Below, piece after piece: positions 2 to 28,875 of a stretch of 63,442 nucleotides of DNA. Source of the stretch: a virus (taxonomy: Duplodnaviria > Caudoviricetes); IMG/VR virus record IMGVR_UViG_3300032241_001905, positions 1 to 63,442 of that record. The stretch is one strand, 5' to 3'. A program made the translations under genes and the position numbers. The notes beneath the pieces were generated by a model. That model was not told where the DNA came from. It saw only the letters and a program-made list of their open reading frames with translations, and made no database searches. Each line of letters starts with the position of its first letter. Within the stretch, counting starts at the first letter, position 1.

Positions 2-586
2 CCTAAACCAATTGATCCATATGGTGTAGCTAAGTATGCTTGTGAAATGGATATTCAAATAGCTAATGAACAACATGGTTTAGATTATTGTATTATTCGT
101 CCTCATAATGTTTATGGTGCTAAACAAAATATTTGGGACAAATATAGAAATGTACTTGGTATTTGGATGTATCAATATATGAATGATGAACCAATGACTA
201 TATTTGGTGATGGTTTTCAAACAAGAGCATTTAGCTACATAGATGATATTATTAAACCACTATGGAACTCAGCTGTATTACCTGAAGCATCTAAAGAAAT
301 TATTAATTTAGGAGGAATCCAATCATATAACATTAGAGAGGCAAATGCTATTTTAAGAAATGTTATAGGCGGTGGTGAAGTAGTGGCTAAAGAAGCAAGA
401 CATGAAGTTAAACATTCTATCCCAACTTATCAAAAATCAGTTGATATTTTAGGATTTGAACATACTACTAATCTACATGATGGTTTAGTTGAAATGTGGG
501 AATGGGCTCAAAAACAACCTAAACGAGACCGTTTTAAATGGCCTAGTTATGAATTAGATAATGGTATTTATAAATTTTGGAAATAA
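2..586 (+). CDS. NAD-dependent epimerase/dehydratase (extended SDR), 5'-truncated by window edge
   Basis: Frame open from nt 2: PIDPYGVAKYACE (YxxxK), RPHNVYG, IFGDGFQTRAFSYIDD. Confidence 0.9.
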   Translation, partial: PKPIDPYGVAKYACEMDIQIANEQHGLDYCIIRPHNVYGAKQNIWDKYRNVLGIWMYQYMNDEPMTIFGDGFQTRAFSYIDDIIKPLWNSAVLPEASKEIINLGGIQSYNIREANAILRNVIGGGEVVAKEARHEVKHSIPTYQKSVDILGFEHTTNLHDGLVEMWEWAQKQPKRDRFKWPSYELDNGIYKFWK

Positions 587-4899: not shown

Positions 4900-5697
4900 A
4901 TGAAAAGAAGAATATTTACATTTGGATGTAGCTTTACAGAGTATACATGGCCAACATGGGCTGACCAAATATTGTATAAAAATGAAGGTGTTAACTACGG
5001 GATATGTGGCGGTGGATATGAAAATATAATGAACTGCCTAGTTCAATGTGATTTTGATTACAAATTAACCCCAGACGATGTTGTTGTTGTAGTTTACCCT
5101 AATTTATTAAGATGGGATTGTGCTATATATCCTAAAACAAAGGGTTTTGGTAATGCTATTACTTCGCCTTGGATTGATCATAAAGATGATTTATGGAATA
5201 TAGAGGGTATGGTATATAAAAATTTAAATATCATGGTTATGGTAGATACATTTTTAAAATCTAAAGGCGTTATTTACAGATACAGCAGTATTACCAAAAT
5301 ATTTACCTACTTAGAAAACTACTTTAACGATGATTATCAGGTAAATGGTGATGTTTTAGAACATTTAAATACAGTTAAAAATAGTTTACCATTCTTACAA
5401 GATTTTTATACATATCTTTATGATGATCATGATACTGATAATAGATGGGATTGTACTAAAAACTGGAGCAACGGTAGAGGAGAATATCACCCAAGACCAG
5501 AAGGTCATTATAGATGGTTAATGAATGTATTGATGCCTACCTTAGATGCAAGTATTAATATTAATGAATACGATATAAAAGAAATAGAAGATTATTTAGA
5601 TGATAATGATGATTTCAATGCTGTTGAGGATTATTTTTCTAAATCTGAATACGAACAAAATAGAAAAGACTGGTATAAACTGCATAAAAAGAATTAA
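4900..5697 (+). CDS. SGNH-like protein
   Basis: FTFGCSFT, NYGICGGG, YHPRPEGH. Confidence 0.55.
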   Translation: MKRRIFTFGCSFTEYTWPTWADQILYKNEGVNYGICGGGYENIMNCLVQCDFDYKLTPDDVVVVVYPNLLRWDCAIYPKTKGFGNAITSPWIDHKDDLWNIEGMVYKNLNIMVMVDTFLKSKGVIYRYSSITKIFTYLENYFNDDYQVNGDVLEHLNTVKNSLPFLQDFYTYLYDDHDTDNRWDCTKNWSNGRGEYHPRPEGHYRWLMNVLMPTLDASININEYDIKEIEDYLDDNDDFNAVEDYFSKSEYEQNRKDWYKLHKKN

Positions 5698-6644
5698 TGA
5701 AAATAGTACATACTTTTGTAAGGCAAGGAATGGGGTATTATCCTGAATATAGAGAATTAATGGATACTTGGAGGTTAAAAGGGATGATATTAAGTTGCAT
5801 TTTAGCTAGAAAACATTATGATGAAGTAGAGCTATGGACTAGTAAAGAAATAGCAGAATTAATTCAAAAATTAGGATTACCTTATACTAAAATTAATGTA
5901 CATGGAAAAGAAGCAATAAGTAATGCTGTATTATTTGGTTTACCTAAATTATATACTTTTTTAGAACAAACTGAACCTTTTGTTCATATTGATGTAGATA
6001 CATTTTTATTTGATAGACTAAATGAATCTAGATTAACTGATATTACTTTCTGCCATCAGGATGTAGTAATAAATAAATTAAGTTCTATTAAAACATACTA
6101 TGAAATTTATGTTGAATCTCTTTTAGAAAACCAAGATAAATTACCAGAGTGGTATGGATCAAATATTGATATTAATGAAATACCAAATATGAATCTTGTA
6201 GCTATAAAAAGCATAAATGAATTTAAAGAAGCAGTACAATTAATTTTAAGTATATATCTTCAAAATAAAGAACATTGGGATAAATTAACATATAATGGTT
6301 CTATGATTATGGAACAATTAGGAACAGGAACCTGTCTTAAACATTTAAATCATAGATTTGATTATTATTTTGATAATCACATACCTAATATGTCTATTAA
6401 AAATAATTTTATGGCTTTTTTTAATCCTTATACTAAAAAGCAACAATTATTCAATACTGATACTCAAATGAATGAAATTGATAATTTTAATTATGACGGG
6501 TATCTACATACTAGCGGATATTGGCTAAGTAATCCCCTTACTCAAAAGATAATAGAGAGTAGGATAGTCAAAGAAGGATACGGAGATTTATTGTCATTAG
6601 TAGATTCGGCAAACGTATACAAAAATTATTTAAAATATATATAA
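5697..6644 (+). CDS. DUF6734-like / GT-A-fold-like protein
   Basis: PKL..EPFVHIDVDTFLF (DxD), EQ motif, YLH near C-terminus. Confidence 0.5.
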   Translation: MKIVHTFVRQGMGYYPEYRELMDTWRLKGMILSCILARKHYDEVELWTSKEIAELIQKLGLPYTKINVHGKEAISNAVLFGLPKLYTFLEQTEPFVHIDVDTFLFDRLNESRLTDITFCHQDVVINKLSSIKTYYEIYVESLLENQDKLPEWYGSNIDINEIPNMNLVAIKSINEFKEAVQLILSIYLQNKEHWDKLTYNGSMIMEQLGTGTCLKHLNHRFDYYFDNHIPNMSIKNNFMAFFNPYTKKQQLFNTDTQMNEIDNFNYDGYLHTSGYWLSNPLTQKIIESRIVKEGYGDLLSLVDSANVYKNYLKYI

Positions 6645-6645
6645 A

Positions 6646-7806
6646 ATGAAAGTAGGTTTCATTGGAATTGGTAAATTAGGTAAAGATGCTGCGGAAGTTA
6701 TGCATGACGCAGGACATGATGTTTTGGGATATGATATTAAACCAATACTTGATTGTAGAATTTATCAAACAACATCATTAAAAGATGTTTGTAAAGATAG
6801 AGAGATAATATTCATAGCTGTACCAACTCCACATCACCCTGATTATGATGGAAGTCAACCAACTTCACATTTGGAACCAAAAGATTTTGATTATTCAATT
6901 GTTAAGAGTGTATTAAAGGAAATAAATCAATATACCACTAAAGAACAACTAGTTGTTTTAATATCGACTGTTTTACCAGGTACAACAAGACGTGAATTTA
7001 TTCCATTAGTTGAAAATTATCGTTTTATTTATAATCCATATCTTATTGCTATGGGTACTGTTAAAAGTGATATGGTTAATCCCGAAATGTTAATTATTGG
7101 TACGGAAGATGGTACTGAAACAGGGGACGCTAAATTATTAACTGATTTTTATCAAACATTTATAAAACCAAATACAAGGTGTGAAATAGGAACTTGGGAT
7201 GATGCTGAAGCGATTAAAATATTTTATAATACTTTTATATCTGCTAAAATATCATTAGTTAATATGATTATGGATGTTGCAGAAAGAAATGGTAATATGA
7301 ATACCGATGTTGTTACGGGTGCTTTAGAAAGGAGTACATATAGAATCATGGGGCCAGCATATATGAAAGCAGGTATGGGTGATGGAGGAGCTTGTCATCC
7401 GAGAGATAATATTGCATTAAGATATATGTCAAAAGAATATGGTCTAACATATGATTTATTTGATTCTATAATGAAATCAAGAGAAGAACAAGCTAAAAAT
7501 ATTGCTACAAAATTATTGGAATTATACGATGAAAATGATTTACCTATTGTAATTTTAGGTGAGAGTTATAAACCAGGTGTTCCATATGTAGATGGTTCAT
7601 ATACTAAATTAATTGCTCATTACTTAGATTATCCATGGTTATACTATGACCAAATTATTGAACCAGCGATTTATTTATTAGGACATAGAGGTGTTTACAA
7701 TGAAACTGTTTTTCCTGAAGGAAGTATTGTGTTAGACCCTTGGAGAGAAAGATTTAAAAAAGATACAATTTATTACGGAAACAATAACCCACAATGCATA
7801 TACTAG
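6646..7806 (+). CDS. ugd: UDP-glucose/GDP-mannose 6-dehydrogenase
   Basis: GFIGIGKLG Rossmann motif, FIAVPTP, STVLPGT, GGACHPRD catalytic Cys. Confidence 0.92.
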   Translation: MKVGFIGIGKLGKDAAEVMHDAGHDVLGYDIKPILDCRIYQTTSLKDVCKDREIIFIAVPTPHHPDYDGSQPTSHLEPKDFDYSIVKSVLKEINQYTTKEQLVVLISTVLPGTTRREFIPLVENYRFIYNPYLIAMGTVKSDMVNPEMLIIGTEDGTETGDAKLLTDFYQTFIKPNTRCEIGTWDDAEAIKIFYNTFISAKISLVNMIMDVAERNGNMNTDVVTGALERSTYRIMGPAYMKAGMGDGGACHPRDNIALRYMSKEYGLTYDLFDSIMKSREEQAKNIATKLLELYDENDLPIVILGESYKPGVPYVDGSYTKLIAHYLDYPWLYYDQIIEPAIYLLGHRGVYNETVFPEGSIVLDPWRERFKKDTIYYGNNNPQCIY

Positions 7807-9365
7807 GAATATCAGCATATTATCATGATTCAGCTGCTTGCTTATTTAAAGATGGCAAGTTGGTGTATGCATGTGAAGAAGAAAAATTTACAGGAATTAA
7901 ACACGATTCATCGTTTCCTGTTAACGCAATAAAGTATATTTTTGATCATCTTGTAGATAAAGTAGATATTGTATGTTATTATGAAAAACCTTCTTTAAAA
8001 TTAAAACGAGCATTTAAACATAACATTAAATCAGTACCTCGCATATTGTGGACTAATATTAAATTATGGTTTCAATTAAGGAAGTTAGGCGCTGAAATAC
8101 GTTATTCAAATCACCATAACTCTCATTTAGCATATGCCTATTATACTTCACCATTTGATGAAGCTACTGTAATCAGTATAGATGGTGTTGGTGAAGAAGA
8201 AACAATATGTATTGCTAAAGCCGATTATGGTCGTATAAAAAAAATTAAAACAACAAAATATCCTCATTCATTAGGATTATTTTATTCTGCTATAACAGCA
8301 TATTTAGGATTTAAACCAAATGAAGGTGAATACAAAGTAATGGGTTTAGCATCATATGGAGATCCTTCAGTGTATGCTGGTGCTTTTCATAAATTAATTA
8401 ATCATAGAGATGGTATTAAAATAAACATGAAATATTTTACTTGGAATAAAAGTAACAAAACCATGTTTAATCATCATCTACTAGAAGTACTAGGTGATAA
8501 TAGGCTACCAGATGAACCAATAACTCAACGCCATAAAGACATTGCTGCTGCTTTACAACAAACATATGAGCGATTATTTTTCTATTTATTAAACCAACAT
8601 CCGGGTGAAAATTTATGTTTAGGTGGGGGCTGTGCTTATAATGGAACAGCAAATGGAAAAATTAAAGATAATACCTCATACAAAAATATTTACATACCAC
8701 AAGCCCCCTCTGATGCAGGATCAGCAATTGGTGCTTGTTTAGATTATATAAGATATCATCGTGAAATAGATTTATTTGTAGGTCCTGAATATACCATAGA
8801 TATACCTAATTCTCAACCATTAAATTTAGAAATAATTGCTAAAGAGTTAAATAATGGAAAGGTAGTAGGTTGGTATGAAGGTAAAATTGAATTTGGCGCT
8901 CGCGCGTTAGGGCATAGAAGTATATTAGCTAACCCTACATTACCTGGTATGCAAGACCGCATCAATAAACTCATTAAAAAACGCGAAATGTTCAGGCCTT
9001 TTGCTCCAATGGTAATTTATAATGAACAAAATAAGTATTTTGATTCCGTTGATTATGTGCCTTATATGAATCAAGTAGTTAAAGTTAGAGAGGAATATAG
9101 AGATAAACTAACTGCTGTAACGCACATTGATGGGACAGCCCGTATTCAATCTATAAAATATGAAGACAATAATAAAATGTATATATTGTTAAATATTTTT
9201 AGAATGCATAGTGGATTTCCTATCTTACTTAACACATCGTTTAATATTAAAGATAAAACAATGGTGTTAACTCCTGAAGATGCATTACTAACATTTTACG
9301 AAACTGATATAGATATACTAGTTATTAACAATCAAATGATATTTAAAAATGATAAAACTAATTAA
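7794..9365 (+). CDS. Carbamoyltransferase, NodU/CmcH family
   Basis: ILGISAYYHDSAA, HHNSH, DGVGE, GEYKVMGLA, EFGARALGHRS, KKREMFRPFAP, HIDGTAR, LNTSFN. Confidence 0.95.
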   Translation: MHILGISAYYHDSAACLFKDGKLVYACEEEKFTGIKHDSSFPVNAIKYIFDHLVDKVDIVCYYEKPSLKLKRAFKHNIKSVPRILWTNIKLWFQLRKLGAEIRYSNHHNSHLAYAYYTSPFDEATVISIDGVGEEETICIAKADYGRIKKIKTTKYPHSLGLFYSAITAYLGFKPNEGEYKVMGLASYGDPSVYAGAFHKLINHRDGIKINMKYFTWNKSNKTMFNHHLLEVLGDNRLPDEPITQRHKDIAAALQQTYERLFFYLLNQHPGENLCLGGGCAYNGTANGKIKDNTSYKNIYIPQAPSDAGSAIGACLDYIRYHREIDLFVGPEYTIDIPNSQPLNLEIIAKELNNGKVVGWYEGKIEFGARALGHRSILANPTLPGMQDRINKLIKKREMFRPFAPMVIYNEQNKYFDSVDYVPYMNQVVKVREEYRDKLTAVTHIDGTARIQSIKYEDNNKMYILLNIFRMHSGFPILLNTSFNIKDKTMVLTPEDALLTFYETDIDILVINNQMIFKNDKTN

Positions 9366-9457: not shown

Positions 9458-10525
9458 ATGGTTGATTTAAAAAAATATGTTTGTACTGTTCCTTTCATTT
9501 CATTACAACTTCACCAACAAGGACCTTTTTTGTGTTGTGAAGGTTGGTTAAAAAATCACATTCCTAAAGAAACTCCATTAGAAGAAATTTGGAATAGTAA
9601 AGAAGCCATTGAAGTTAGAAAATCAATGATGGATGGCTCATACCGTTACTGTGACAAGAACGGCTGCCCCTATCTTTCTCAACTAATAAATGTTGGTGAA
9701 AGTGGAAATATTGGATATTTTACTAAAGTAGAAAATCTTCCATCTAAAATTAAAAAATTATATGATAACAATTCGGGATACATGGAGGAATTTCCTGAAA
9801 TATTCCAATACTCATATGATAAAACCTGCAACTATAAATGCCCAACTTGCAGAACTGATTTTATAATAGAAAATTCAGACAAAATAAAGGAAATTCAAAA
9901 ATTAACAGAAGATATTGAAATATTATTCGCAAATGAATTAAGAATGCTTTATCTATCTGGCTCAGCAGATCCATTTGCTTCAGTAACATATAGAAATTTT
10001 TTAAGAAACTTTGATGCTAAAAAATATCCTAAATTAGAATCCATACATTTACATACTAATGCAGGGTTATGGAATAAAAAAATGTGGGATAGTATGAAAA
10101 ATATTCACAAATATGTTACTACTTGTGAAATTAGTATAGACGCTGCTACGAAATACACATATGAAAATATTACAAGATTAGGGGGTAATTGGGATACTTT
10201 TATTGATAATTTGAAATTTATTAATTCAATAAAAAAAATAAAATATGTAAAAACATCATTTGTTGTTCAATCTGAAAATTATACTGAAATGAAACCATTT
10301 GTTGATTTAATGAAATCTATATTTGGAAAAAAAGTTGAAATATTTTTTGGTAGATTAGATAACTGGGGAACGTTTGATGAATCAATGTATAAACTTAAAA
10401 ATGTATGTGATGTTAATCATCCGGAGCATGGTTTATTTAAAAAAGAATTAGATAAAGTATGGAAAGATCCACAGGTATTTAGTAATATACATGAATATAT
10501 AGACATTAAAAAGACAATATTCTAA
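9458..10525 (+). CDS. Radical SAM protein with N-terminal SPASM/twitch-like Cys cluster
   Basis: CNYKCPTC (CxxxCxxC); N-terminal C..CC..C..C; ISIDA. Confidence 0.85.
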   Translation: MVDLKKYVCTVPFISLQLHQQGPFLCCEGWLKNHIPKETPLEEIWNSKEAIEVRKSMMDGSYRYCDKNGCPYLSQLINVGESGNIGYFTKVENLPSKIKKLYDNNSGYMEEFPEIFQYSYDKTCNYKCPTCRTDFIIENSDKIKEIQKLTEDIEILFANELRMLYLSGSADPFASVTYRNFLRNFDAKKYPKLESIHLHTNAGLWNKKMWDSMKNIHKYVTTCEISIDAATKYTYENITRLGGNWDTFIDNLKFINSIKKIKYVKTSFVVQSENYTEMKPFVDLMKSIFGKKVEIFFGRLDNWGTFDESMYKLKNVCDVNHPEHGLFKKELDKVWKDPQVFSNIHEYIDIKKTIF

Positions 10526-10647: not shown

Positions 10648-11379
10648 ATGTACTTTAAAGAACCACTTTTACCTACTGATAAAGATAATTTATTTTATCT
10701 AGCACCTATTCCTGTTTATATGAAAATGTTTGATGATGATATTTCTGATCAAGCATTTGATCTAGGATTAGAAGTATTAAGTGAAAAACAAAAATTAATG
10801 GGTCAAGAATTACCTGATCAATATGATGAGGAAAGACAATCTACTTATAATGTAAATTATAATAAAAGAAATATGTGGGTTGAAAAAACGGAATATAATC
10901 CAATAGGAAGTAGATTTTTTACTCCTCCAAATCGATTTATAGAAAGAACAGAGGATTGTGTTAAGGTAATTAAACAAAGATGTATAAATGGCTTTAATGA
11001 ATTACTAGATGGAATAGGACTAGAACATAACTACAAACCAAATATTTCAGAAAGCTGGATCCAATATTACAATGCAACTTCAGGTAGAGGTCATAACCAA
11101 CATAATCATTGTGATTGGAATGCAATAGGAGCAGAACCACTGTCGTTTGTTGGTGGATACTATTTGAATGATGGCGAACCAATAAATGATCACCCTTATA
11201 GTGGAGCGTTATGTTTTCATATAAGAGGAATGTCTTATTTTATTAAGCCTAAAAAAGGAATGTTATTAATTTGGCCTTATGATATTATCCACTCAGTAAA
11301 ACCTTTTTATGGTAAGAGTGATAGATGTGTTATTAATTTTAATATTAGTGGTTTTCCAAAAGCTACAAAGTTAGTATAA
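10648..11379 (+). CDS. Putative 2OG-Fe(II) oxygenase
   Basis: HNQHNH..GGYYL..GMLLIWP..IHSVKP..DRCVINFN (HxH..H..R). Confidence 0.8.
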   Translation: MYFKEPLLPTDKDNLFYLAPIPVYMKMFDDDISDQAFDLGLEVLSEKQKLMGQELPDQYDEERQSTYNVNYNKRNMWVEKTEYNPIGSRFFTPPNRFIERTEDCVKVIKQRCINGFNELLDGIGLEHNYKPNISESWIQYYNATSGRGHNQHNHCDWNAIGAEPLSFVGGYYLNDGEPINDHPYSGALCFHIRGMSYFIKPKKGMLLIWPYDIIHSVKPFYGKSDRCVINFNISGFPKATKLV

Positions 11380-12125
11380 TGAAATTAATATGGACATACA
11401 ATGATTCTCCTGTTAGTTTAGAAAACGATGATTATAGAAAAATAATTAGAATTAATTTAGCTATTCAATCAATTAAAGCAGCAAAGGGATTAGGTTATTT
11501 TACTTCAATGTACTGTAATAAAGAATCTGCAAATTATTTTATAAAATTTGTAGATGAAATAAACATATTAGAACAATATGATACTCCTTTTTGGGATTGT
11601 TTTAAAATTGATGTATTAGAAAAAGAAACTGGGGAATTTTGCTTAATAGATGGTGACATTATTCTACACAACAGATTACCTGAGTTTACAGAAGATTTAG
11701 TAATTGATTCTTTTGAAAGAAGAACTTGTAAACGATATTACGACTTATTTGATATCATAGATACACTGAATATAAAAAAATATGTTAAAGATTGGGTAAA
11801 CGATAAAAAACTTTTAATTATAAATCATGGAATCATGTATTTTAAAAATGAAAGTTTTAAACAAATATATTTGGAAAATTGGAAAAATTATGGTATCTTT
11901 GTAACTAATAATAAAGACAATATTGATGACATGGTTTACGCAAGTTTAACAAGTCAATATATATTAAGTATTTTAGTAAAAAAATATAGTATAAATGTTA
12001 AAGCATTATCACATTCAATACTAGAAAAAAATGATTACTATATACATTATGCGGGTGACAATAAATTTACAAATCCAATAGTACCAACTAACTACATAAT
12101 TTCAGATAGTAAAGTATTAATATGA
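11379..12125 (+). CDS. DUF6734-like / GT-A-fold-like protein
   Basis: WDCFK..CLIDGDIIL (DxD), YIHYAG; tandem paralog of the next gene. Confidence 0.5.
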   Translation: MKLIWTYNDSPVSLENDDYRKIIRINLAIQSIKAAKGLGYFTSMYCNKESANYFIKFVDEINILEQYDTPFWDCFKIDVLEKETGEFCLIDGDIILHNRLPEFTEDLVIDSFERRTCKRYYDLFDIIDTLNIKKYVKDWVNDKKLLIINHGIMYFKNESFKQIYLENWKNYGIFVTNNKDNIDDMVYASLTSQYILSILVKKYSINVKALSHSILEKNDYYIHYAGDNKFTNPIVPTNYIISDSKVLI

Positions 12126-12880
12126 GGTTAATTTGGACATATGATAGTAAAGGATTTTTACATGATTCTCATAAAGATAGAAGAACTATTTTATTGAATT
12201 ATTACATGCATTCTATAGAAACTGCAAAAAAATTTGGTTACTATACTATAATGTATTGCGACTTAGTTCATATGGATTTATTTAAAAACTTAGTTGATGA
12301 AATACACATATTGGAAAATTATGAAAATTCACCACTATGGGACAGTTTTAAGTTTAAAGCATTAGAAGATCAAGAAGATGATAATTATTGCTTAATTGAT
12401 GGTGATGTTATTCTACATGCCAAACTACCTGAATTGGATACTGATGTTATTTTTGATTCATGGGAAGTATTAAATTGGAAAAGAGAATATAAAAACACAA
12501 TAGATAAATTAACAAAATTAAACATAGCGGATCATATAAAAGAATGGAATTATAAACAAATACCCATAATGTGTTGTGGTATTTTAAATATAAAAACAAA
12601 AATAAATAGGTTAATTTATATCAATAATTGGAAAGTATTTAACAATTTTGTAAAAGAAAATATTGAACAAATAGACACAGACTATGCAACCGCAGTGGGA
12701 GCACAATATTTACTAACTTTAATAACTAAATACAATAATTTTACTTATAAAAACTTATGTGAGCAATTTGGTGAGAATGGTAATTACTACAAACACCACG
12801 CAGGTATCATAAAATACAAAGCACCCATTGTTCCTACTGATCGTTTAATAGGTAAAATGCAAAAAAAAGATATATTTTAA
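12122..12880 (+). CDS. DUF6734-like / GT-A-fold-like protein
   Basis: WDSFK..CLIDGDVIL, YKHHAG; paralog of the previous gene. Confidence 0.5.
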   Translation: MRLIWTYDSKGFLHDSHKDRRTILLNYYMHSIETAKKFGYYTIMYCDLVHMDLFKNLVDEIHILENYENSPLWDSFKFKALEDQEDDNYCLIDGDVILHAKLPELDTDVIFDSWEVLNWKREYKNTIDKLTKLNIADHIKEWNYKQIPIMCCGILNIKTKINRLIYINNWKVFNNFVKENIEQIDTDYATAVGAQYLLTLITKYNNFTYKNLCEQFGENGNYYKHHAGIIKYKAPIVPTDRLIGKMQKKDIF

Positions 12881-12901: not shown

Positions 12902-14758
12902 ATGAAAGGAACATTTTTCTCGGCGGACTTTGCAACGGATAAAGACGAAAACTTAAGACTAATAGAAATAAATACAGATACGGGCATGGTTGCTTCTCAA
13001 ACAACATCGTTTGACTGGAGTGATTTTATTAATGTATTAAGTGGCTCAAATTTAACACAAGTAGATGTAGTTTATAAAACAGAATTACAACAAGTTATAA
13101 TAGACAATTTATCTCAATCGTTAGCACTAGATGCCCCTTTTGTTACAACATTTAATCCGGTTGTTGTTCCTGGAGATTCAATATTCCCTACAGCACCTGC
13201 TGAAAATGGCTCTAATTTTGTATTAAGAATGGCATATGATGAAACATCCATATTAGATTCTGAATATGCTGCTGGCACATTAAATTTATTAACATTATTT
13301 GCTGATAACAGTGATACAGGATCAATTGTTAATTTCTACCATTCTTCTTCTGTTCATGGGTATTATAACACATTAAATACATCAATCATAAATGGAGATG
13401 CGTTACCTGATATTGTTACTAAAACAATAGTAGAAAACCATTTACCACATAGTTTCTATAAAATAGGTAACTCAACATCTGCTTCAGTTGATAGATACAA
13501 TAATTTTATTTCAACAGTTGCAACACAAGATTTAATTTTAGAACAATACCATTTAAATCAATCACAGATGGATGTGAATCAGATTAATAGTATTCGTTCG
13601 TTTCAAATTGTATATGGTGATAATTTAGATTTATGTTATGTTGCACAATATGAAATTCCATCTGTATTCACTTTACCTACCTCTATAAATTATGATGATA
13701 CACAGATTAGTAATTTAATAGATAGTAAACATTATTATGAATACGCAAGCAATACTATTAAAAACCAAAATCACGGAGTATTAGGAGATGAATTAGTAGT
13801 AGATGTAACAGGCAGTGCAGTAGAAATACAAAATTTATCTATTGGAGATACTTATCAAAGTTGGTATATAAATGGCTTACCTGAAACTGATGATTATAAT
13901 GTTTTAGATGAATATTACATTACAGGATCTTCTTTACCATCCGGATCATATTTAACAGCATCTGTTTGTGATTACTTATATAATTCACCTACTTATGCAA
14001 ATGATATGACACGTATTACATTTGTAAATGGTAATGAAATTTTTATTGGTGGTGAAACTAGAATGCTAGTTTATTCAAACTCAAACAATGAAATGCACTA
14101 TGTAAGAGTTGTTGATTTAGATACAACATATTCCGTATTAGGTGAAAATGGTAGTTTAAACCAAATAAGTGCAATTGATGTTGTAATATTTAATGAACCA
14201 CAAAATGTGTGGGTACCAAGTATGGATCCATATGATAACTTTGTTTTAGAAAGTGGTAATTTTTTAACTTTTTATATTACACACAATTCTGGTATATCGG
14301 GTTCATGTTTTCCAAAAGGAACAAAAATATTAATGGCTGATGGTAGTTTAAAAAATATAGAAGATATTGAAATTGGTGATGAAGTTCTTTCCTTTAATGA
14401 ACAAACATTAAAAATTGAAGCTAAAAAAGTAATTGGGTTAAAAGCTCCAATACATGACGATTTAGTTAAATACCATTTCTCAAATGATACAGATTTAATT
14501 TGTACTTTTGATCATCCTATTTACACAAATGGCTTAGCATTATCATCATTTATCCCAGAGTGGACAAATAATAGATATGATATTAATAAAACCGTTGTAA
14601 AAATAAAAACAGGAGATATGGTTAGATTATCAACAGGTAGCATGACTGCAATTAAAGAAATAGAAATATTAAAACCTGAAGATACTCAAACACATATTAT
14701 TACAGTAGAAGATAATCATAATTTCTTTGCAAACAATATTTTAGTACACAACAAATAA
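12902..14758 (+). CDS. Circularly permuted ATP-grasp-like domain fused to two tandem Hint (intein-like) domains
   Basis: N-terminal SADF..LIEINTD; Hint-1 GVLGDELV..EIQNLSIGD...DNF..ITHN; linker SGISGS; Hint-2 CFPKGTKI..IEDIEIGD..TFDHP..HNFFANNILVHNK. Confidence 0.75.
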   Translation: MKGTFFSADFATDKDENLRLIEINTDTGMVASQTTSFDWSDFINVLSGSNLTQVDVVYKTELQQVIIDNLSQSLALDAPFVTTFNPVVVPGDSIFPTAPAENGSNFVLRMAYDETSILDSEYAAGTLNLLTLFADNSDTGSIVNFYHSSSVHGYYNTLNTSIINGDALPDIVTKTIVENHLPHSFYKIGNSTSASVDRYNNFISTVATQDLILEQYHLNQSQMDVNQINSIRSFQIVYGDNLDLCYVAQYEIPSVFTLPTSINYDDTQISNLIDSKHYYEYASNTIKNQNHGVLGDELVVDVTGSAVEIQNLSIGDTYQSWYINGLPETDDYNVLDEYYITGSSLPSGSYLTASVCDYLYNSPTYANDMTRITFVNGNEIFIGGETRMLVYSNSNNEMHYVRVVDLDTTYSVLGENGSLNQISAIDVVIFNEPQNVWVPSMDPYDNFVLESGNFLTFYITHNSGISGSCFPKGTKILMADGSLKNIEDIEIGDEVLSFNEQTLKIEAKKVIGLKAPIHDDLVKYHFSNDTDLICTFDHPIYTNGLALSSFIPEWTNNRYDINKTVVKIKTGDMVRLSTGSMTAIKEIEILKPEDTQTHIITVEDNHNFFANNILVHNK

Positions 14759-14916: not shown

Positions 14917-15462
14917 ATGCTTTTATATAATGGAGTTATATTGACAAAAGACGACTGTGATTATCTTTTAAGTATTGATAATAATTTTAGAAAATCTTCA
15001 TTAAGAGATAACTTACACGGAGTTATTAGAGATGATGTTTATAATGATAATAAAAGAAAATCAACACAATTATCTGGTCAGATATTAAAAGGGGATAGAA
15101 TATATAAAAAAATAGAAGAAATAGTTAATAATACTGATTTTAAATTAACAGGTGATTATTTGTGGTATGATGTTATTAAATACAAAAAAGATGATTTTAT
15201 ATTTAAACATCAAGATAGAGATGAAAATAGATTTATGATCTGTGCTGTACAATTAAGTGACACGGATGACTATAGTGGTGGTGATTTCAAATATTGGATT
15301 GGTGATACTGAAAATGTTCTGAATAGAAATAAAGGTTATGGTATTTTATTTAAACCCGATATGTACCATGAAGTTACAAAAATAGAAGATGGTGAAAGAC
15401 ATTCTTTTATTATATTCATTCCTTTAGAGTCGTTAACTAAGAAAAAACCTTCATTATTTTAA
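14917..15462 (+). CDS. 2OG-Fe(II) oxygenase, prolyl-4-hydroxylase-like
   Basis: HQD, QLS..DYSGGDF, YHEVTKI..GERHS. Confidence 0.88.
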   Translation: MLLYNGVILTKDDCDYLLSIDNNFRKSSLRDNLHGVIRDDVYNDNKRKSTQLSGQILKGDRIYKKIEEIVNNTDFKLTGDYLWYDVIKYKKDDFIFKHQDRDENRFMICAVQLSDTDDYSGGDFKYWIGDTENVLNRNKGYGILFKPDMYHEVTKIEDGERHSFIIFIPLESLTKKKPSLF

Positions 15463-18689: not shown

Positions 18690-19439
18690 ATGCTTAAAAA
18701 AGACAAAATAATACAAGACAAATATAATGGTATTCACCCAACATGCCAATGTGGGTGTGGTCAACAAACACGCTATGAACCTAATAAAAAGGATTATTGC
18801 AAGTGGATAAGTGGACACCAATCACGTGTAGCTAGTCATTTTGGTGACCCCAAATCTGAAAAACGTGTAAATGCTATTATAAGTACCCGTAAAGCTAAAT
18901 TCGCCTCAGGTGAATACAACCACATATTAGATAAAGTATCACAGAACCGATCTGAAGAAACCAAACAAAAAATTAGTGAAGGAGGTACAGGCGTGTCTCG
19001 CCCTAAAGCTGATGGGTTTGGAATTGGTAGAGTACATAGCCAGGCTACTAAAGATAAAATGAGTAAAACCGCTATCAAAAATATATTAAAAGATGGTAAA
19101 AATAGACGTTCTAAATTAGAATATTTTTTTGAAGGAATATTAGTGTCTTTAAATATAGATTATACTCATTCGTATTATGTAGAAAGTATAAATAAAATAT
19201 ATGATTTTTACCTTCCTAAATATAATATACTGATTGAGGTAGACGGAGATTTCTGGCATTGTAATCCTCAAGAATATGATGTACCTTTATGTAAAACTCA
19301 ACATATTAATATAGAAAATGATAAATTTAAGTCACAATGGGCATTAGATAACGGCTATACATTGTTGCGCTTTTGGGAAAATGATATCAACAATAATATT
19401 AAACAAGTTAAGCAAACATTACTAGAACATTGCAATTAA
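18690..19439 (+). CDS. Free-standing homing endonuclease, Vsr/DUF559 (EDxHD-like) with NUMOD3-like repeats
   Basis: CQCGCG, SEETKQKIS, HSQATKDKMS, YDFY..IEVDGDFWH..LRFWE. Confidence 0.82.
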   Translation: MLKKDKIIQDKYNGIHPTCQCGCGQQTRYEPNKKDYCKWISGHQSRVASHFGDPKSEKRVNAIISTRKAKFASGEYNHILDKVSQNRSEETKQKISEGGTGVSRPKADGFGIGRVHSQATKDKMSKTAIKNILKDGKNRRSKLEYFFEGILVSLNIDYTHSYYVESINKIYDFYLPKYNILIEVDGDFWHCNPQEYDVPLCKTQHINIENDKFKSQWALDNGYTLLRFWENDINNNIKQVKQTLLEHCN

Positions 19440-26028: not shown

Positions 26029-28875
26029 ATGTCAATATTCAAAGATACATTTAAACAAGGCGTTCAAGACCAAATAACAGCACGTCAAAATGCTATAGTA
26101 GGTAGGAGTGTAGATTCCATGCAATATTTTAATTCACGCAATGCTTGGATTAAAATGACTTCTGCTGTAAATGTAGGAGGATCTGCTGACTTAGCAGCTA
26201 AATATATTTTACAAGGTGGTATTTTAAATTCAAAATCCAAATTAAGATCAGGACTAGGACAAGATGGTGCTTACAGCAATGTTTCACCTACAGGAAAACC
26301 TTATAGATTAGGTATTAGACCAATGCCTGGTATTAACCATATAGAAGTTAAATCAAAATCAGCATATGGTTCTTTAAGAGAAATTACAGTACATTTTCAG
26401 GCTTGGGATATTAGACAATTAGAAGATTTAGAATTATTATATATGAGACCTGGTTATTCTGTATTAGTAGAATGGGGTTGGTCTCCTTATTTAGATAATA
26501 AAGGTGCTTTACAAACAACTGTAAATTATAATGAAGTTAATATATTAGGTAATAGTGCTCCTAAAACTTCAAAAGAAGATATTTGGAAAGCTATATATAC
26601 TAAAGCCGCTAGAGACGGAAATTATGATGCTGTATATGGCTTTATTAAAAATTATAGCTGGTCAGCTCGCACAGATGGAGGATATGATTGTACTACAACC
26701 ATAATAACAATGGGTGAAATATTAGAATCATTAAAAATAAACTATGGCTCATTTGATACAAATGTAGGACAAATAGGAGCATTTAAAGTATTACCTGTTT
26801 CTTCATTTCAAACTAGTCCAAATAACGCACTTTTACTTAGTGCAGGAGTAGCAGGAGCTGGTTTAAATGGAAGTACAGGTGCTGCCTCTGCTATAGTTAG
26901 TGTTATTAATGAATCTAATTTATCCAAATCATACGCTCAAAACTTATTAGCAGGTATACTTAATGAATTATATTTAATAATGAAAGATAGTAGTCTTTCC
27001 AAGTATGCTATTGCAAATAACTTTAATGAAGGTACATTTACTGATACTACTTCGGGATATAGTTATACTTTCTTTAGATATGATTTAGATATATCTGGAA
27101 ATAATAAATTAGATAAAACTGACTTTCACAATAACACTCAAATTTTTATTAAATTAAAAGATTTTATTAATTTATTAAATACAAAAATATTACTACACGA
27201 CTCAGATCATACAAACCCTAAAGCATTAGTAGAAGTTTCAGTTACAGAAGGAACTATACACCAAACAGGAGCAGATTTATTATGTTTAAGTCACCCATTC
27301 CAATTATCAACTGACCCTTCAGTATGTTTAATAAAAAATAATAAATGGATAGATCCACAAAATAATTTCAACATAACAGTAGATAATGTTAACTTATCTC
27401 AAGTGATGAATGGATTAAAAAGTGATTTTTATAAAGATACAGCTAACGGTAGTGCACAATTAGGTGTTATAGGAAATATTTACGTTAATTTAGGTTATTT
27501 ATATTCTTTAGTTACAAATGAAGATTTAGCATCTAGAGATAAAAAGGAAAAAAATGATATTTCGGTATTTGATTTTCTAAAAAATATGCTAAACGGTATT
27601 AATACCGCTATTGGTAATGTAGCTAACCTTGATATATTTGTAGATCCTGTAGATTCTGTAGCTAGAATAATAGATGTAAACTATGTTGATTCTGCTAAAA
27701 GACAGAAAGCATATGATGATGCCTTTATTATTCAAATGCAAAATATCAAATCAGTAGTAAGATCTTATAAATTAGAATCACAAATATTTCCTGAGCAATC
27801 AACTATAGTTGCTATTGGAGCTCAAGTAAAAGGAGGAGCATTAGGTACTGATGTAAACACATTAATTGATTTTAATCAAAATTTAGAAGACAGAATCATA
27901 CCTAAAAGAGATGCTCCGCTTACTACTATTAAATCTAATCCTTTAGAAGAAGCAGAAACTAAAGTTAAAAATTTAAAAACTAATTTAAATTCTATAACAA
28001 AGTATATAAGCAAACTAGAACCAGGATTTTGGAGTAATACAGGTGACTTTAGTGTTTTAGAAGCATCTAAATATGCTAACTCTTTAAAGGACATTATTTC
28101 ATTCTATAAAGATTTAACACCAGACGACAATAAAAATAGAGCAATTATTCCTACAAAATTATCTATTGATATGGATGGTGTAGGAGGAATTATTATAGGA
28201 AATTTATTTAGAATACCAGATGATATATTACCAAGAGGATATAAAGGTGATGGTGCTGGTCCTAAAAAAATATCTTATGTTGTTACTGGTATAGGTCATT
28301 CAATTCAAAATAATGATTGGACAACTCATTTAGATGCTCAATTTATCATATTAGATGAACCTACAGGAAGCATATCAATAGCAGATGCTAATAAATTAGC
28401 AGCCTCAATAATTGGTTCTGTTAGTAATGGTAATACAATTCAAGCAGCAGCTACGTTAGCTGGTTTAACTTCTACTCCTAATGGATTAGTATATCCTGTT
28501 AAAGGTTTATTTACTATATCTTCTAAATTTGGAACTGTTAGAGCAGATGAAATACATCCTGGAACTGATATATCTGTTGGTTTAGGTACACCTGTAATAG
28601 CAGTTGAAGATGGAACAGTAATAGCATCTACTTTTAATACCCTTAATGGAAACTATATTAGAATTCAACATACAGGACAATTAGCAGGATATGATACTAT
28701 TTATCTTCACATGTCTCAACTTAATGTAAATAAAGGGGATAAAATAACTAAAGGCCAAATAATTGGACTTTCAGGAAATACTGGTAAATTAAGAGGTCCT
28801 CACTTACATTTCCAAATAGACCAAACAGGAGGAACAACAGGAATAAATCCATCTCAATTTTTCCCTGGATTTTAA
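26029..28875 (+). CDS. Baseplate hub-like protein with C-terminal M23 peptidase
   Basis: C-terminal HPGTD (HxxxD), YLHM, G.SGNTG..GPHLHF; position in the baseplate cluster. Confidence 0.75.
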   Translation: MSIFKDTFKQGVQDQITARQNAIVGRSVDSMQYFNSRNAWIKMTSAVNVGGSADLAAKYILQGGILNSKSKLRSGLGQDGAYSNVSPTGKPYRLGIRPMPGINHIEVKSKSAYGSLREITVHFQAWDIRQLEDLELLYMRPGYSVLVEWGWSPYLDNKGALQTTVNYNEVNILGNSAPKTSKEDIWKAIYTKAARDGNYDAVYGFIKNYSWSARTDGGYDCTTTIITMGEILESLKINYGSFDTNVGQIGAFKVLPVSSFQTSPNNALLLSAGVAGAGLNGSTGAASAIVSVINESNLSKSYAQNLLAGILNELYLIMKDSSLSKYAIANNFNEGTFTDTTSGYSYTFFRYDLDISGNNKLDKTDFHNNTQIFIKLKDFINLLNTKILLHDSDHTNPKALVEVSVTEGTIHQTGADLLCLSHPFQLSTDPSVCLIKNNKWIDPQNNFNITVDNVNLSQVMNGLKSDFYKDTANGSAQLGVIGNIYVNLGYLYSLVTNEDLASRDKKEKNDISVFDFLKNMLNGINTAIGNVANLDIFVDPVDSVARIIDVNYVDSAKRQKAYDDAFIIQMQNIKSVVRSYKLESQIFPEQSTIVAIGAQVKGGALGTDVNTLIDFNQNLEDRIIPKRDAPLTTIKSNPLEEAETKVKNLKTNLNSITKYISKLEPGFWSNTGDFSVLEASKYANSLKDIISFYKDLTPDDNKNRAIIPTKLSIDMDGVGGIIIGNLFRIPDDILPRGYKGDGAGPKKISYVVTGIGHSIQNNDWTTHLDAQFIILDEPTGSISIADANKLAASIIGSVSNGNTIQAAATLAGLTSTPNGLVYPVKGLFTISSKFGTVRADEIHPGTDISVGLGTPVIAVEDGTVIASTFNTLNGNYIRIQHTGQLAGYDTIYLHMSQLNVNKGDKITKGQIIGLSGNTGKLRGPHLHFQIDQTGGTTGINPSQFFPGF

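Follow-up and report, generated by a model that had tools for sequence, protein, structure and literature searches.

What is the function of a phage protein that carries two Hint domains in its C-terminal half, the first apparently without one half of the intein active site and the second ending one residue before the stop codon? The question is raised by the gene for protein P0001 (Table 1) of an uncultured, marine-type phage, in a linear virus record of 63,442 bases (IMG/VR record IMGVR_UViG_3300032241_001905, Caudoviricetes), hereafter called the window, which is the whole stretch of DNA that was analysed. Hint domains were previously known as inteins, BIL domains and Hedgehog-type processors. 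An earlier interpretation made from the letters of the window alone (the sequence-only reading) had proposed that the two units are disabled in complementary ways and excise the hexapeptide between them, SGISGS, as a peptide product. The protein was assessed against its relatives, structural models and known families. It consists of three parts, namely a ligase-like domain, a degenerate Hint (the pseudo-Hint) and a complete Hint, and this layout is common to hundreds of phage proteins. Conservation across the family leads us to favour, with somewhat better than even probability, an autoprocessing precursor that would cleave itself after translation and release its enzyme module. The hexapeptide is, by its variability among relatives, most likely a spacer.

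Translation of the gene reproduced the two Hint-like units and the strings by which they had been recognised: HGVLG at 13772–13786, with Gly292 at the position given to it earlier; HNSGISGSCF at 14282–14311, with the Cys469 codon at 14306; TFDH at 14504–14515; and VHNK followed by the stop codon at 14744–14758. A frameshift or an overlapping antisense gene was considered and rejected, as the antisense strand within the gene holds a single chance open reading frame (ORF) of 54 residues.

The degenerate Hint domain

Searches of Pfam, PHROGs and NCBIfam gave no match at threshold for residues 291–462, and Hint and intein models matched only residues 466–617. The nature of the middle domain was therefore judged from an alignment of 45 rows (A2), made of the window's protein and 44 of the 51 distinct proteins from related loci, by three different methods: (i) profile–profile comparison; (ii) a profile search of PDB sequences; and (iii) structure prediction followed by structural comparison. 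In the first, hhalign matched the 45 pseudo-Hints to 44 canonical Hints with a probability of 97.5% and an expect value (E) of 5.7e-12 (columns 12–181 against 3–149), setting His-Asn on His-Asn, Gly292 opposite Cys1 and GGET opposite TFDH. In the second, the A2 profile found the C. thermocellum BIL domain (2lwy) at E 2.4e-6 and Tetrahymena BIL2 at about 4e-6. The AlphaFold2 model of A2 had a mean predicted local distance difference test score (pLDDT) of 87.1 and a predicted template modelling (TM) score of 0.82, and a Foldseek search with this model gave 58 matches in the PDB at E≤0.001, the target TM-scores reaching 0.87; among the matches listed were BIL2 (6y75, 6tmm), 2lwy, Prp8 and archaeal inteins, and Hedgehog (1at0, 6tyy). 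By all three tests residues 292–462 have a true Hint fold, far beyond chance, which upholds the fold that the sequence-only reading had assigned to residues 290–462.

Conservation was counted in 257 relatives that have both the N-terminal domain and the pseudo-Hint. The block A nucleophile is absent: Gly292 occupies the Cys1 position, and Gly was found there in 254 of 254 aligned relatives. The Thr-x-x-His of block B is absent as well, since A2 has neither a conserved Thr nor a conserved His at that site. At the other end of the domain the terminal Asn was present in all 237 aligned relatives and the penultimate His in 235 of 238. Inspection by eye of the 20 rows with an unaligned end showed HN (once RN) just before Cys1 or the tail in 19, and the remaining one is a short protein with an ambiguous end. 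The description of the first unit as Gly for Cys1, without TxxH and with His-Asn retained thus agrees with both hhalign and the family alignment. Block F has a conserved acidic residue, which is Asp442 in the window and Glu in at least 90% of the relatives. As far as conserved residues can tell, the pseudo-Hint is without the N-terminal half of the intein active site and keeps the C-terminal half (penultimate His, terminal Asn and the acidic residue of block F).

The invariant residues of A2 are Gly10, Pro64, Ser72 and Asn180 (A2 numbering), and no Cys is conserved. The domain further contains a conserved insertion of about 35 residues, with the invariant Pro346 and Ser354, that is absent from canonical Hints and is a putative binding site. 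Mean column identity was 42% for the pseudo-Hint and 36% for the canonical Hint, calculated from 45 and 44 rows of nearly the same loci. Because its column identity exceeds that of the canonical Hint and the insertion is conserved, the pseudo-Hint is, judged by its sequence, a maintained domain and not a decaying copy.

The canonical Hint domain

The first canonical Hint of each protein was aligned in 44 rows (A3; 43 locus proteins and the window). The NCBIfam models intein_Nterm and intein_Cterm matched this domain with scores of 29.0 (cut-off 24.5) and 17.0 (cut-off 15.6), and the A3 profile found Tetrahymena BUBL BIL2 (E 2.4e-24), the C. thermocellum BIL domain (1.2e-21) and, as the best named intein, a match at 6.7e-12. 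Residues 469–617 have the residues of a class 1 intein, that is, Cys1, TxxH and the terminal His-Asn. The +1 Cys/Ser/Thr and the C-extein of such an intein are absent, as only Lys618 separates Asn617 from the stop codon, and with the protein ending one residue past the Hint there is also no Hog-type region for recognition of a sterol or other adduct. Because a +1 nucleophile and a C-extein are missing, the domain is by its sequence a BIL-type Hint and not an intein; nor is it a Hedgehog Hog domain. The same residues (Cys1, TFDH, His-Asn, and Lys618 with the stop in place of a +1 nucleophile) had been read correctly from the sequence alone.

Among 322 canonical units of the relatives Cys1 was present without exception, as was the block B His in the 320 units aligned there. 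The terminal dipeptide was nearly as constant: of 294 aligned units, 293 have the His and all have the Asn. The ends that could not be aligned, 28 in number, belong to Vint-type or partial units. The residue that follows depends on the place of the unit in the protein: after the terminal Hint it is Lys in 210 of 246 units, and after the 76 internal units Arg (38) is commoner than Lys (21). A stop codon directly after the Asn was never seen among the 322 units, and a Cys, Ser or Thr nucleophile followed in 4.

Canonical Hints in tandem within one protein are 22–56% identical (median 35%), and the nearest neighbour of a tandem Hint is the Hint at the same position in another protein, never one of the same protein. 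Since neighbours share position across proteins and never within a protein, the tandem arrays are, on this sequence grouping, old. A recent tandem duplication was rejected on the same identities and grouping by position.

Longer arrays were seen outside the family. Five unrelated metagenomic proteins of 1285–4119 residues (P0147, P0208, P0217, P0221 and P0230) carry 4–7 BIL-type Hints head to tail, joined as HN-K-(G/S)n-CF with nothing between the Hints; in P0147 a Pro-rich, collagen-like tail follows the array, and the stretch formed by the first 128 residues of this protein likewise terminates in ..VHN.

The N-terminal domain

The AlphaFold2 model of residues 1–283, built from 45 aligned sequences, had a mean pLDDT of 89.0. 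Foldseek matched it in the PDB to YgiC, YjfC, glutathionylspermidine synthetase (GspS) and eukaryotic glutathione synthetases at E 3e-6 to 1e-4; these ATP-grasp ligases are its best structural matches. Sub-threshold sequence matches are weak leads toward ATP-grasp, and matches of ATP-grasp type in the ESM Atlas, at scores of 0.88–0.92, likewise serve as leads only. A Glu-x-Asn motif near the N-terminus would, we presume, fit a permuted ATP-grasp. From the model, residues 1–283 are probably a permuted ATP-grasp-like domain, an amide-forming ligase.

Two points weigh against this assignment. The Foldseek matches have TM-scores of just 0.36–0.46, despite a probability of 1.0, and residues 1–290 have no significant sequence-family match in Pfam, PHROGs or NCBIfam at threshold. 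Searching PDB sequences with the profile of the domain gave nothing significant (best E 0.09), and no viral model in BFVD matched the domain in Foldseek at E≤0.001. A search of the window's own record for GSP_synth (PF03738) found none, and a cluster look-up returned only the name 'hypothetical protein'.

Family and exchange of the C-terminal module

A 90%-clustered protein database contained 443 relatives at E≤1e-3, nearly all of 600–640 residues. A 50%-clustered library contained 167 representatives at E≤1e-30, and 72 loci were found on IMG/VR viral contigs. Hidden Markov models from alignments A2, A3 and A4 were then run over 315 proteins, a non-independent set in which close and distant relatives are mixed. 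The N-terminal domain and pseudo-Hint were followed by one canonical Hint in 177 proteins, by two in 62, by three in 7 and by none in 11; the remainder of the 315 were fragments or unrelated multi-Hint proteins. Hint-less forms of 460–490 residues stop 1–10 residues past the His-Asn of the pseudo-Hint. On phage contigs, L073 (490 residues) and L074 (570 residues) stop soon after HN, with no Hint ORF downstream.

Some relatives have a Vint-type Hint (PF14623) in place of the BIL Hint. In one metagenomic relative (P0238, 531 residues) a Peptidase_S74 'chaperone of endosialidase' domain stands directly after His-Asn and replaces the Hint; its score was 22.6 bits at a cut-off of 22 (E 1.3e-4). On a FastTree tree of 224 N-modules, analysed by unrooted parsimony with 29 rows with partial or Vint-type ends excluded, the number of canonical Hints must have changed at least 23 times, compared with 58 times on average when the labels are shuffled, and at least 6 of the changes are between none and some. 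By these sequence comparisons the C-terminal appendage, predicted to be self-cleaving, is an exchangeable module: 0–3 BIL Hints, a Vint-type Hint or a Peptidase_S74 domain.

In the subfamily of L020, L022, L023 and P0166 a short ..PK(L/I) tail stands after the last His-Asn. It follows the canonical Hint in L020–L023 and the pseudo-Hint in P0166, and looks like the exact insertion or deletion of a Hint unit at the His-Asn boundary.

A tblastn search of 50,697 cultured-phage records, a set from which records close to the window may be missing, gave no match to the N-terminal 468 residues; the matches were confined to the canonical Hint and came from 38 records, in each of which the matching sequence is an intein within a gene of a Vibrio or Acinetobacter phage. 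A pattern-based scan, which distant cellular homologs could escape, yielded no relative in 185,579 prokaryote species genomes. On these searches the family is apparently restricted to viruses. Open-access papers and bioRxiv, covered for tandem Hint or BIL arrays, for phage Hint with ATP-grasp and for intein-like domains in viral metagenomes, contained no description of this ATP-grasp-like/pseudo-Hint/BIL family, of a Hint stably reduced to the asparagine half-site, or of an exchange of BIL, Vint-type and S74 modules at one position.

Proposed autoprocessing and its alternatives

In the autoprocessing that we favour, Cys469 would make an N–S acyl shift at the Ser468–Cys469 bond and so form a thioester, which would be resolved most simply by hydrolysis or thiolysis, freeing an enzyme module of about 52 kDa from a Hint of about 17 kDa. 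Asn617 could cyclise and shed Lys618. Cleavage is the expected outcome because a +1 nucleophile is missing, as it is in BIL domains; those without a +1 nucleophile yield mainly cleaved products (PMC7664689). Asn462 would probably act as an asparagine lyase and trim what follows it, which is the linker in the window and a short tail in the Hint-less relatives; where the linker has zero length, the lyase and thioester reactions would target the same bond. Asparagine lyases require an Asn and a nearby Asp or Glu (PMC3207474). Within the autoprocessing reading, catalysis by Asn462 has a roughly even chance. Such trimming would account both for the invariance of the Asn, which extends to the Hint-less forms, and for the tail that every protein has after it. 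The suggestion that the first Hint might be inert is unlikely for the same residue, invariant even without a second Hint. The further suggestion that the whole N-terminal part leaves as a thioester, to be hydrolysed or transferred, is possible.

Several observations weigh against autoprocessing. The chemistry as a whole is a prediction from conserved residues. The isolated-domain model of the pseudo-Hint has a pLDDT below 50 over its last five residues (..YITHN), which include the His-Asn, so the model does not support a placement of this dipeptide in an active-site-like pocket. The Asp of the pseudo-Hint replaces the block F His of canonical Hints and might impair cyclisation of the Asn; the counterpart of His461 is Ala, Tyr, Ser or Arg in 4 relatives; and the invariant Asn could serve structure or ligand binding instead of catalysis. 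Simple release also leaves unexplained both the retention of 1–3 old, distinct Hints and the strong preference for Lys after the last Asn.

This preference bears on a transfer of the Hedgehog or BUBL type, in which the Cys469 thioester is captured by a specific amine or hydroxyl without hydrolysis, so that the enzyme module becomes conjugated or capped at its C-terminus. Candidate acceptors are the epsilon-amine of the conserved +1 Lys, a Lys in a different protein of the phage or its host, and a small molecule of the neighbouring pathway. The closest solved relative of the canonical Hint is indeed BUBL BIL2, which its providers say forms an isopeptide bond to Lys without ATP (PMC8616854). The dominance of Lys after terminal Hints, whereas internal units favour Arg, and the lack of any stop codon directly after the Asn point the same way. 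Past the Hint, however, there is no acceptor domain and no region resembling that for sterol recognition, the end being Lys618. Hint-less forms exist. In one relative the Hint is replaced by the Peptidase_S74 domain, a module known only to hydrolyse, and this replacement argues for release over ligation as the common function. We regard transfer as possible but doubtful.

A more elaborate scheme joins transfer to the role of the pseudo-Hint. The two Hints would then be the halves of a split-function ligation machine: the BIL Hint would charge the C-terminus of the enzyme module as a thioester, the nearly invariant Lys after the last Asn or a Lys of a phage or host protein would capture it as an isopeptide in the manner of BUBL, asparagine-lyase steps would then clear the Hints, and any additional Hints would provide steps that can be reloaded or timed. 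We consider this improbable. If true, it would mean that a form of protein conjugation derived from inteins, and needing no ATP, serves phages to tether or cap a biosynthetic enzyme.

Alternatively, the Hints could be passengers inactive in processing, either relics or selfish add-ons, on a protein that works as one uncleaved chain. Their labile copy number on the tree (at least 23 changes) and the apparent viability of the Hint-less forms would suit passengers. Inactive relics would not keep Cys1, the block B His and the terminal Asn without exception in all aligned units (322, 320 and 294), nor would the pseudo-Hint keep its Asn in 237 of 237; the tandem copies have diverged to 22–56% identity, yet the catalytic residues are kept. 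Passengers of this kind are therefore quite unlikely.

The linker between the Hint domains

The linker, from the Asn of the pseudo-Hint to Cys1, was determined in 231 relatives. Its length was 0 in 44, 1 in 8, 2 in 51, 3 in 54, 4 in 8, 5 in 32, 6 in 18 and 7–14 in 16, with 14 residues as the maximum; linkers of 1–3 residues thus account for 113 of the 231. The commonest sequences were AP (34), LGS (31) and SP (10), with GP, DP or NP in 4 more, and the composition was 23% Gly and 14% Ser. Exact SGISGS was found once, in the window's own protein, and its LGISG(S/G) variants 9 times. The residue after the Asn was Leu in 73, Ala in 55, Cys in 44, Val in 14 and Ser in 11. No payload is conserved between the two Hints. 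As the linker is short or absent, variable and rich in Gly and Ser, these counts point to a spacer and not to a peptide product.

The excision that had been proposed, in which both Hints free the linker as an H2N-peptide-thioester that is then cyclised, oligomerised or transferred, would be a natural counterpart of the two-intein (TWIN) cassette. The complementary residue pattern behind it is real, and the features that were expected to be kept (Gly and His-Asn of the first Hint, Cys1 and the block B His of the second) are kept while the linker varies, as had also been expected; the linker as the product is the part that fails. In 44 of 231 relatives there would be nothing to release, in most others only a few residues of spacer composition, and relatives without a canonical Hint still have the pseudo-Hint and its Asn. 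The X-Pro dipeptides form a large subgroup, and an X-Pro dipeptide could cyclise to a diketopiperazine; together with P0197, in which about 61 Cys-rich residues separate the Hints, they keep a subfamily-specific version of peptide release alive. As the general purpose of the family, excision of the linker is very unlikely. Among the relatives seen, P0197 (metagenomic, 659 residues) alone has a sizeable insert in place of the linker; the insert lies between the His-Asn of the pseudo-Hint and Cys1 and contains a repeated C-P-E-C.

The possibility that the pseudo-Hint is a class 2 or class 3 intein splicing the ATP-grasp domain to the downstream part was rejected as close to negligible: inteins without an N-terminal nucleophile exist (PMC7664689) and Cys follows the Asn in the 44 zero-linker relatives, but 142 of 231 relatives have Leu, Ala or Val there and just 13 have Ser or Thr, so that there is no consistent +1 nucleophile as in class 2, A2 has no conserved Cys that could act as the block F nucleophile, which in class 3 goes with a WCT motif, and the 35-residue conserved insertion and a conservation above that of the canonical Hint are unexpected for a selfish insert.

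Comparison with known systems

The phage canonical Hint resembles the BIL domain of C. thermocellum (2lwy), which likewise has Cys1, TxxH and His-Asn, is without a +1 nucleophile and is C-terminal in its host protein. It differs in that it sits behind a degenerate Hint, occurs in old tandem sets of 0–3 and is followed by a single Lys. Like the Hog domain of Hedgehog it is C-terminal, and its Cys1 would load the functional part upstream as a thioester. Hedgehog carries an extension for sterol recognition, which the phage Hint does not have, and the Hog domain is not known to perform the terminal Asn step, whereas the phage Hint retains His-Asn. TWIN vectors combine an upstream unit limited to C-terminal cleavage with a downstream unit limited to thioester formation. 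The complementary disabling of the phage pair is the same, but TWIN units flank a chosen target and the phage family has nothing conserved between its units. Tetrahymena BUBL (BIL2; 6tmm, 6y75), the best solved match of both phage Hints, is a natural case of flanking Hints that release and activate what lies between them. Its payload is a folded ubiquitin-like domain, and the domain that follows carries the Lys acceptor (PMC8616854); the phage 'payload' amounts to 0–14 spacer residues, and the upstream phage Hint is without Cys1. The phage pair fails the defining feature of both BUBL and TWIN because there is no payload.

The pseudo-Hint itself keeps the pair found in asparagine peptide lyases (MEROPS type N, including the intein families N9–N11), namely a terminal Asn and an acidic residue. 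Peptidase_S74, the intramolecular chaperone of phage tail spikes and fibres, is also a self-cleaving C-terminal module; it is present in P0238 and absent from the window's protein, and it differs from Hint in fold and in chemistry, which is that of a Ser-Lys dyad.

The family thus adds two things to the known Hint proteins: a Hint that appears stably reduced to the asparagine half of its active site throughout a large phage family, and complete BIL Hints apparently handled as an exchangeable C-terminal module of varying copy number. It also corrects the idea of a ribosomally made hexapeptide product. If the predicted cleavage is true, the family would be a natural example of dissected intein half-reactions, a source of small domains for protein engineering that perform only C-terminal cleavage or only thioester formation, and a clue to how phages control an enzyme in an uncharacterised sugar or metabolite pathway.

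Gene layout and genomic context

The window has an estimated completeness of 37% and a GC (guanine plus cytosine) content of 26–35%, and its genes include those for tail sheath, tail tube, baseplate and ribonucleotide reductase. The features of the gene and of its neighbourhood are listed in Table 1.

Table 1. Positions of the gene, its domains and the neighbouring genes in the window.
Feature	Position	Strand	Basis or remark
Whole ORF (P0001)	12902..14758	+	single unbroken frame, 618 residues plus stop
N-terminal domain, residues 1–283, probably ATP-grasp-like	12902..13750	+	AlphaFold2 model, Foldseek
Degenerate Hint (pseudo-Hint), residues 292–462	13775..14287	+	hhalign, PDB profile search, AlphaFold2, Foldseek
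Insertion within pseudo-Hint, about residues 323–357	13868..13972	+	alignment A2, hhalign gaps
His461-Asn462, block G motif of pseudo-Hint, candidate asparagine-lyase site	14282..14287	+	translation, family conservation
SGISGS linker, residues 463–468, most likely a variable Gly/Ser spacer	14288..14305	+	translation, family linker survey
Canonical BIL-type Hint, residues 469–617 (Cys469, Thr535..His538, His616-Asn617)	14306..14752	+	Pfam, NCBIfam, PDB profile search
Lys618 and stop, one-residue tail after terminal Asn	14753..14758	+	translation
2-oxoglutarate (2OG)-Fe(II) oxygenase, most conserved neighbour	14917..15462	+	PHROG and NCBIfam matches; downstream of ORF
Epimerase/dehydratase fragment	47–586		upstream of ORF
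DUF6734-like genes	5697–6644, 11379–12125, paralog 12122–12880		upstream
UDP-glucose dehydrogenase-like gene	6646–7806		upstream
NodU-type carbamoyltransferase	7794–9365		upstream
Twitch-type radical S-adenosylmethionine (SAM) enzyme	9458–10525		upstream
2OG-Fe(II) oxygenase	10648–11379		upstream; second 2OG oxygenase downstream of ORF

Among the 72 related loci the downstream 2OG oxygenase and a radical SAM enzyme were each neighbours in 41, the carbamoyltransferase in 23, DUF6734-like genes in 18 and a tail sheath in 2. Because biosynthetic neighbours recur in these loci and the tail sheath in only 2 of 72, the gene, by this measure of gene neighbourhood, belongs to a conserved phage biosynthetic cluster and not to the tail module downstream in the window. 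The five ORFs between 577 and 5697 had no family match. The genes between 47 and 12880 form a same-strand run that resembles a nucleotide-sugar or metabolite pathway.

Two other genes of the window were noted. An ORF at 18690–19439, between the tail tube and baseplate-hub-like genes, resembles an HNH or homing endonuclease, and a 948-residue protein encoded at 26029–28875 ends in a metallo-endopeptidase domain of the kind known from tape-measure and lysis proteins.

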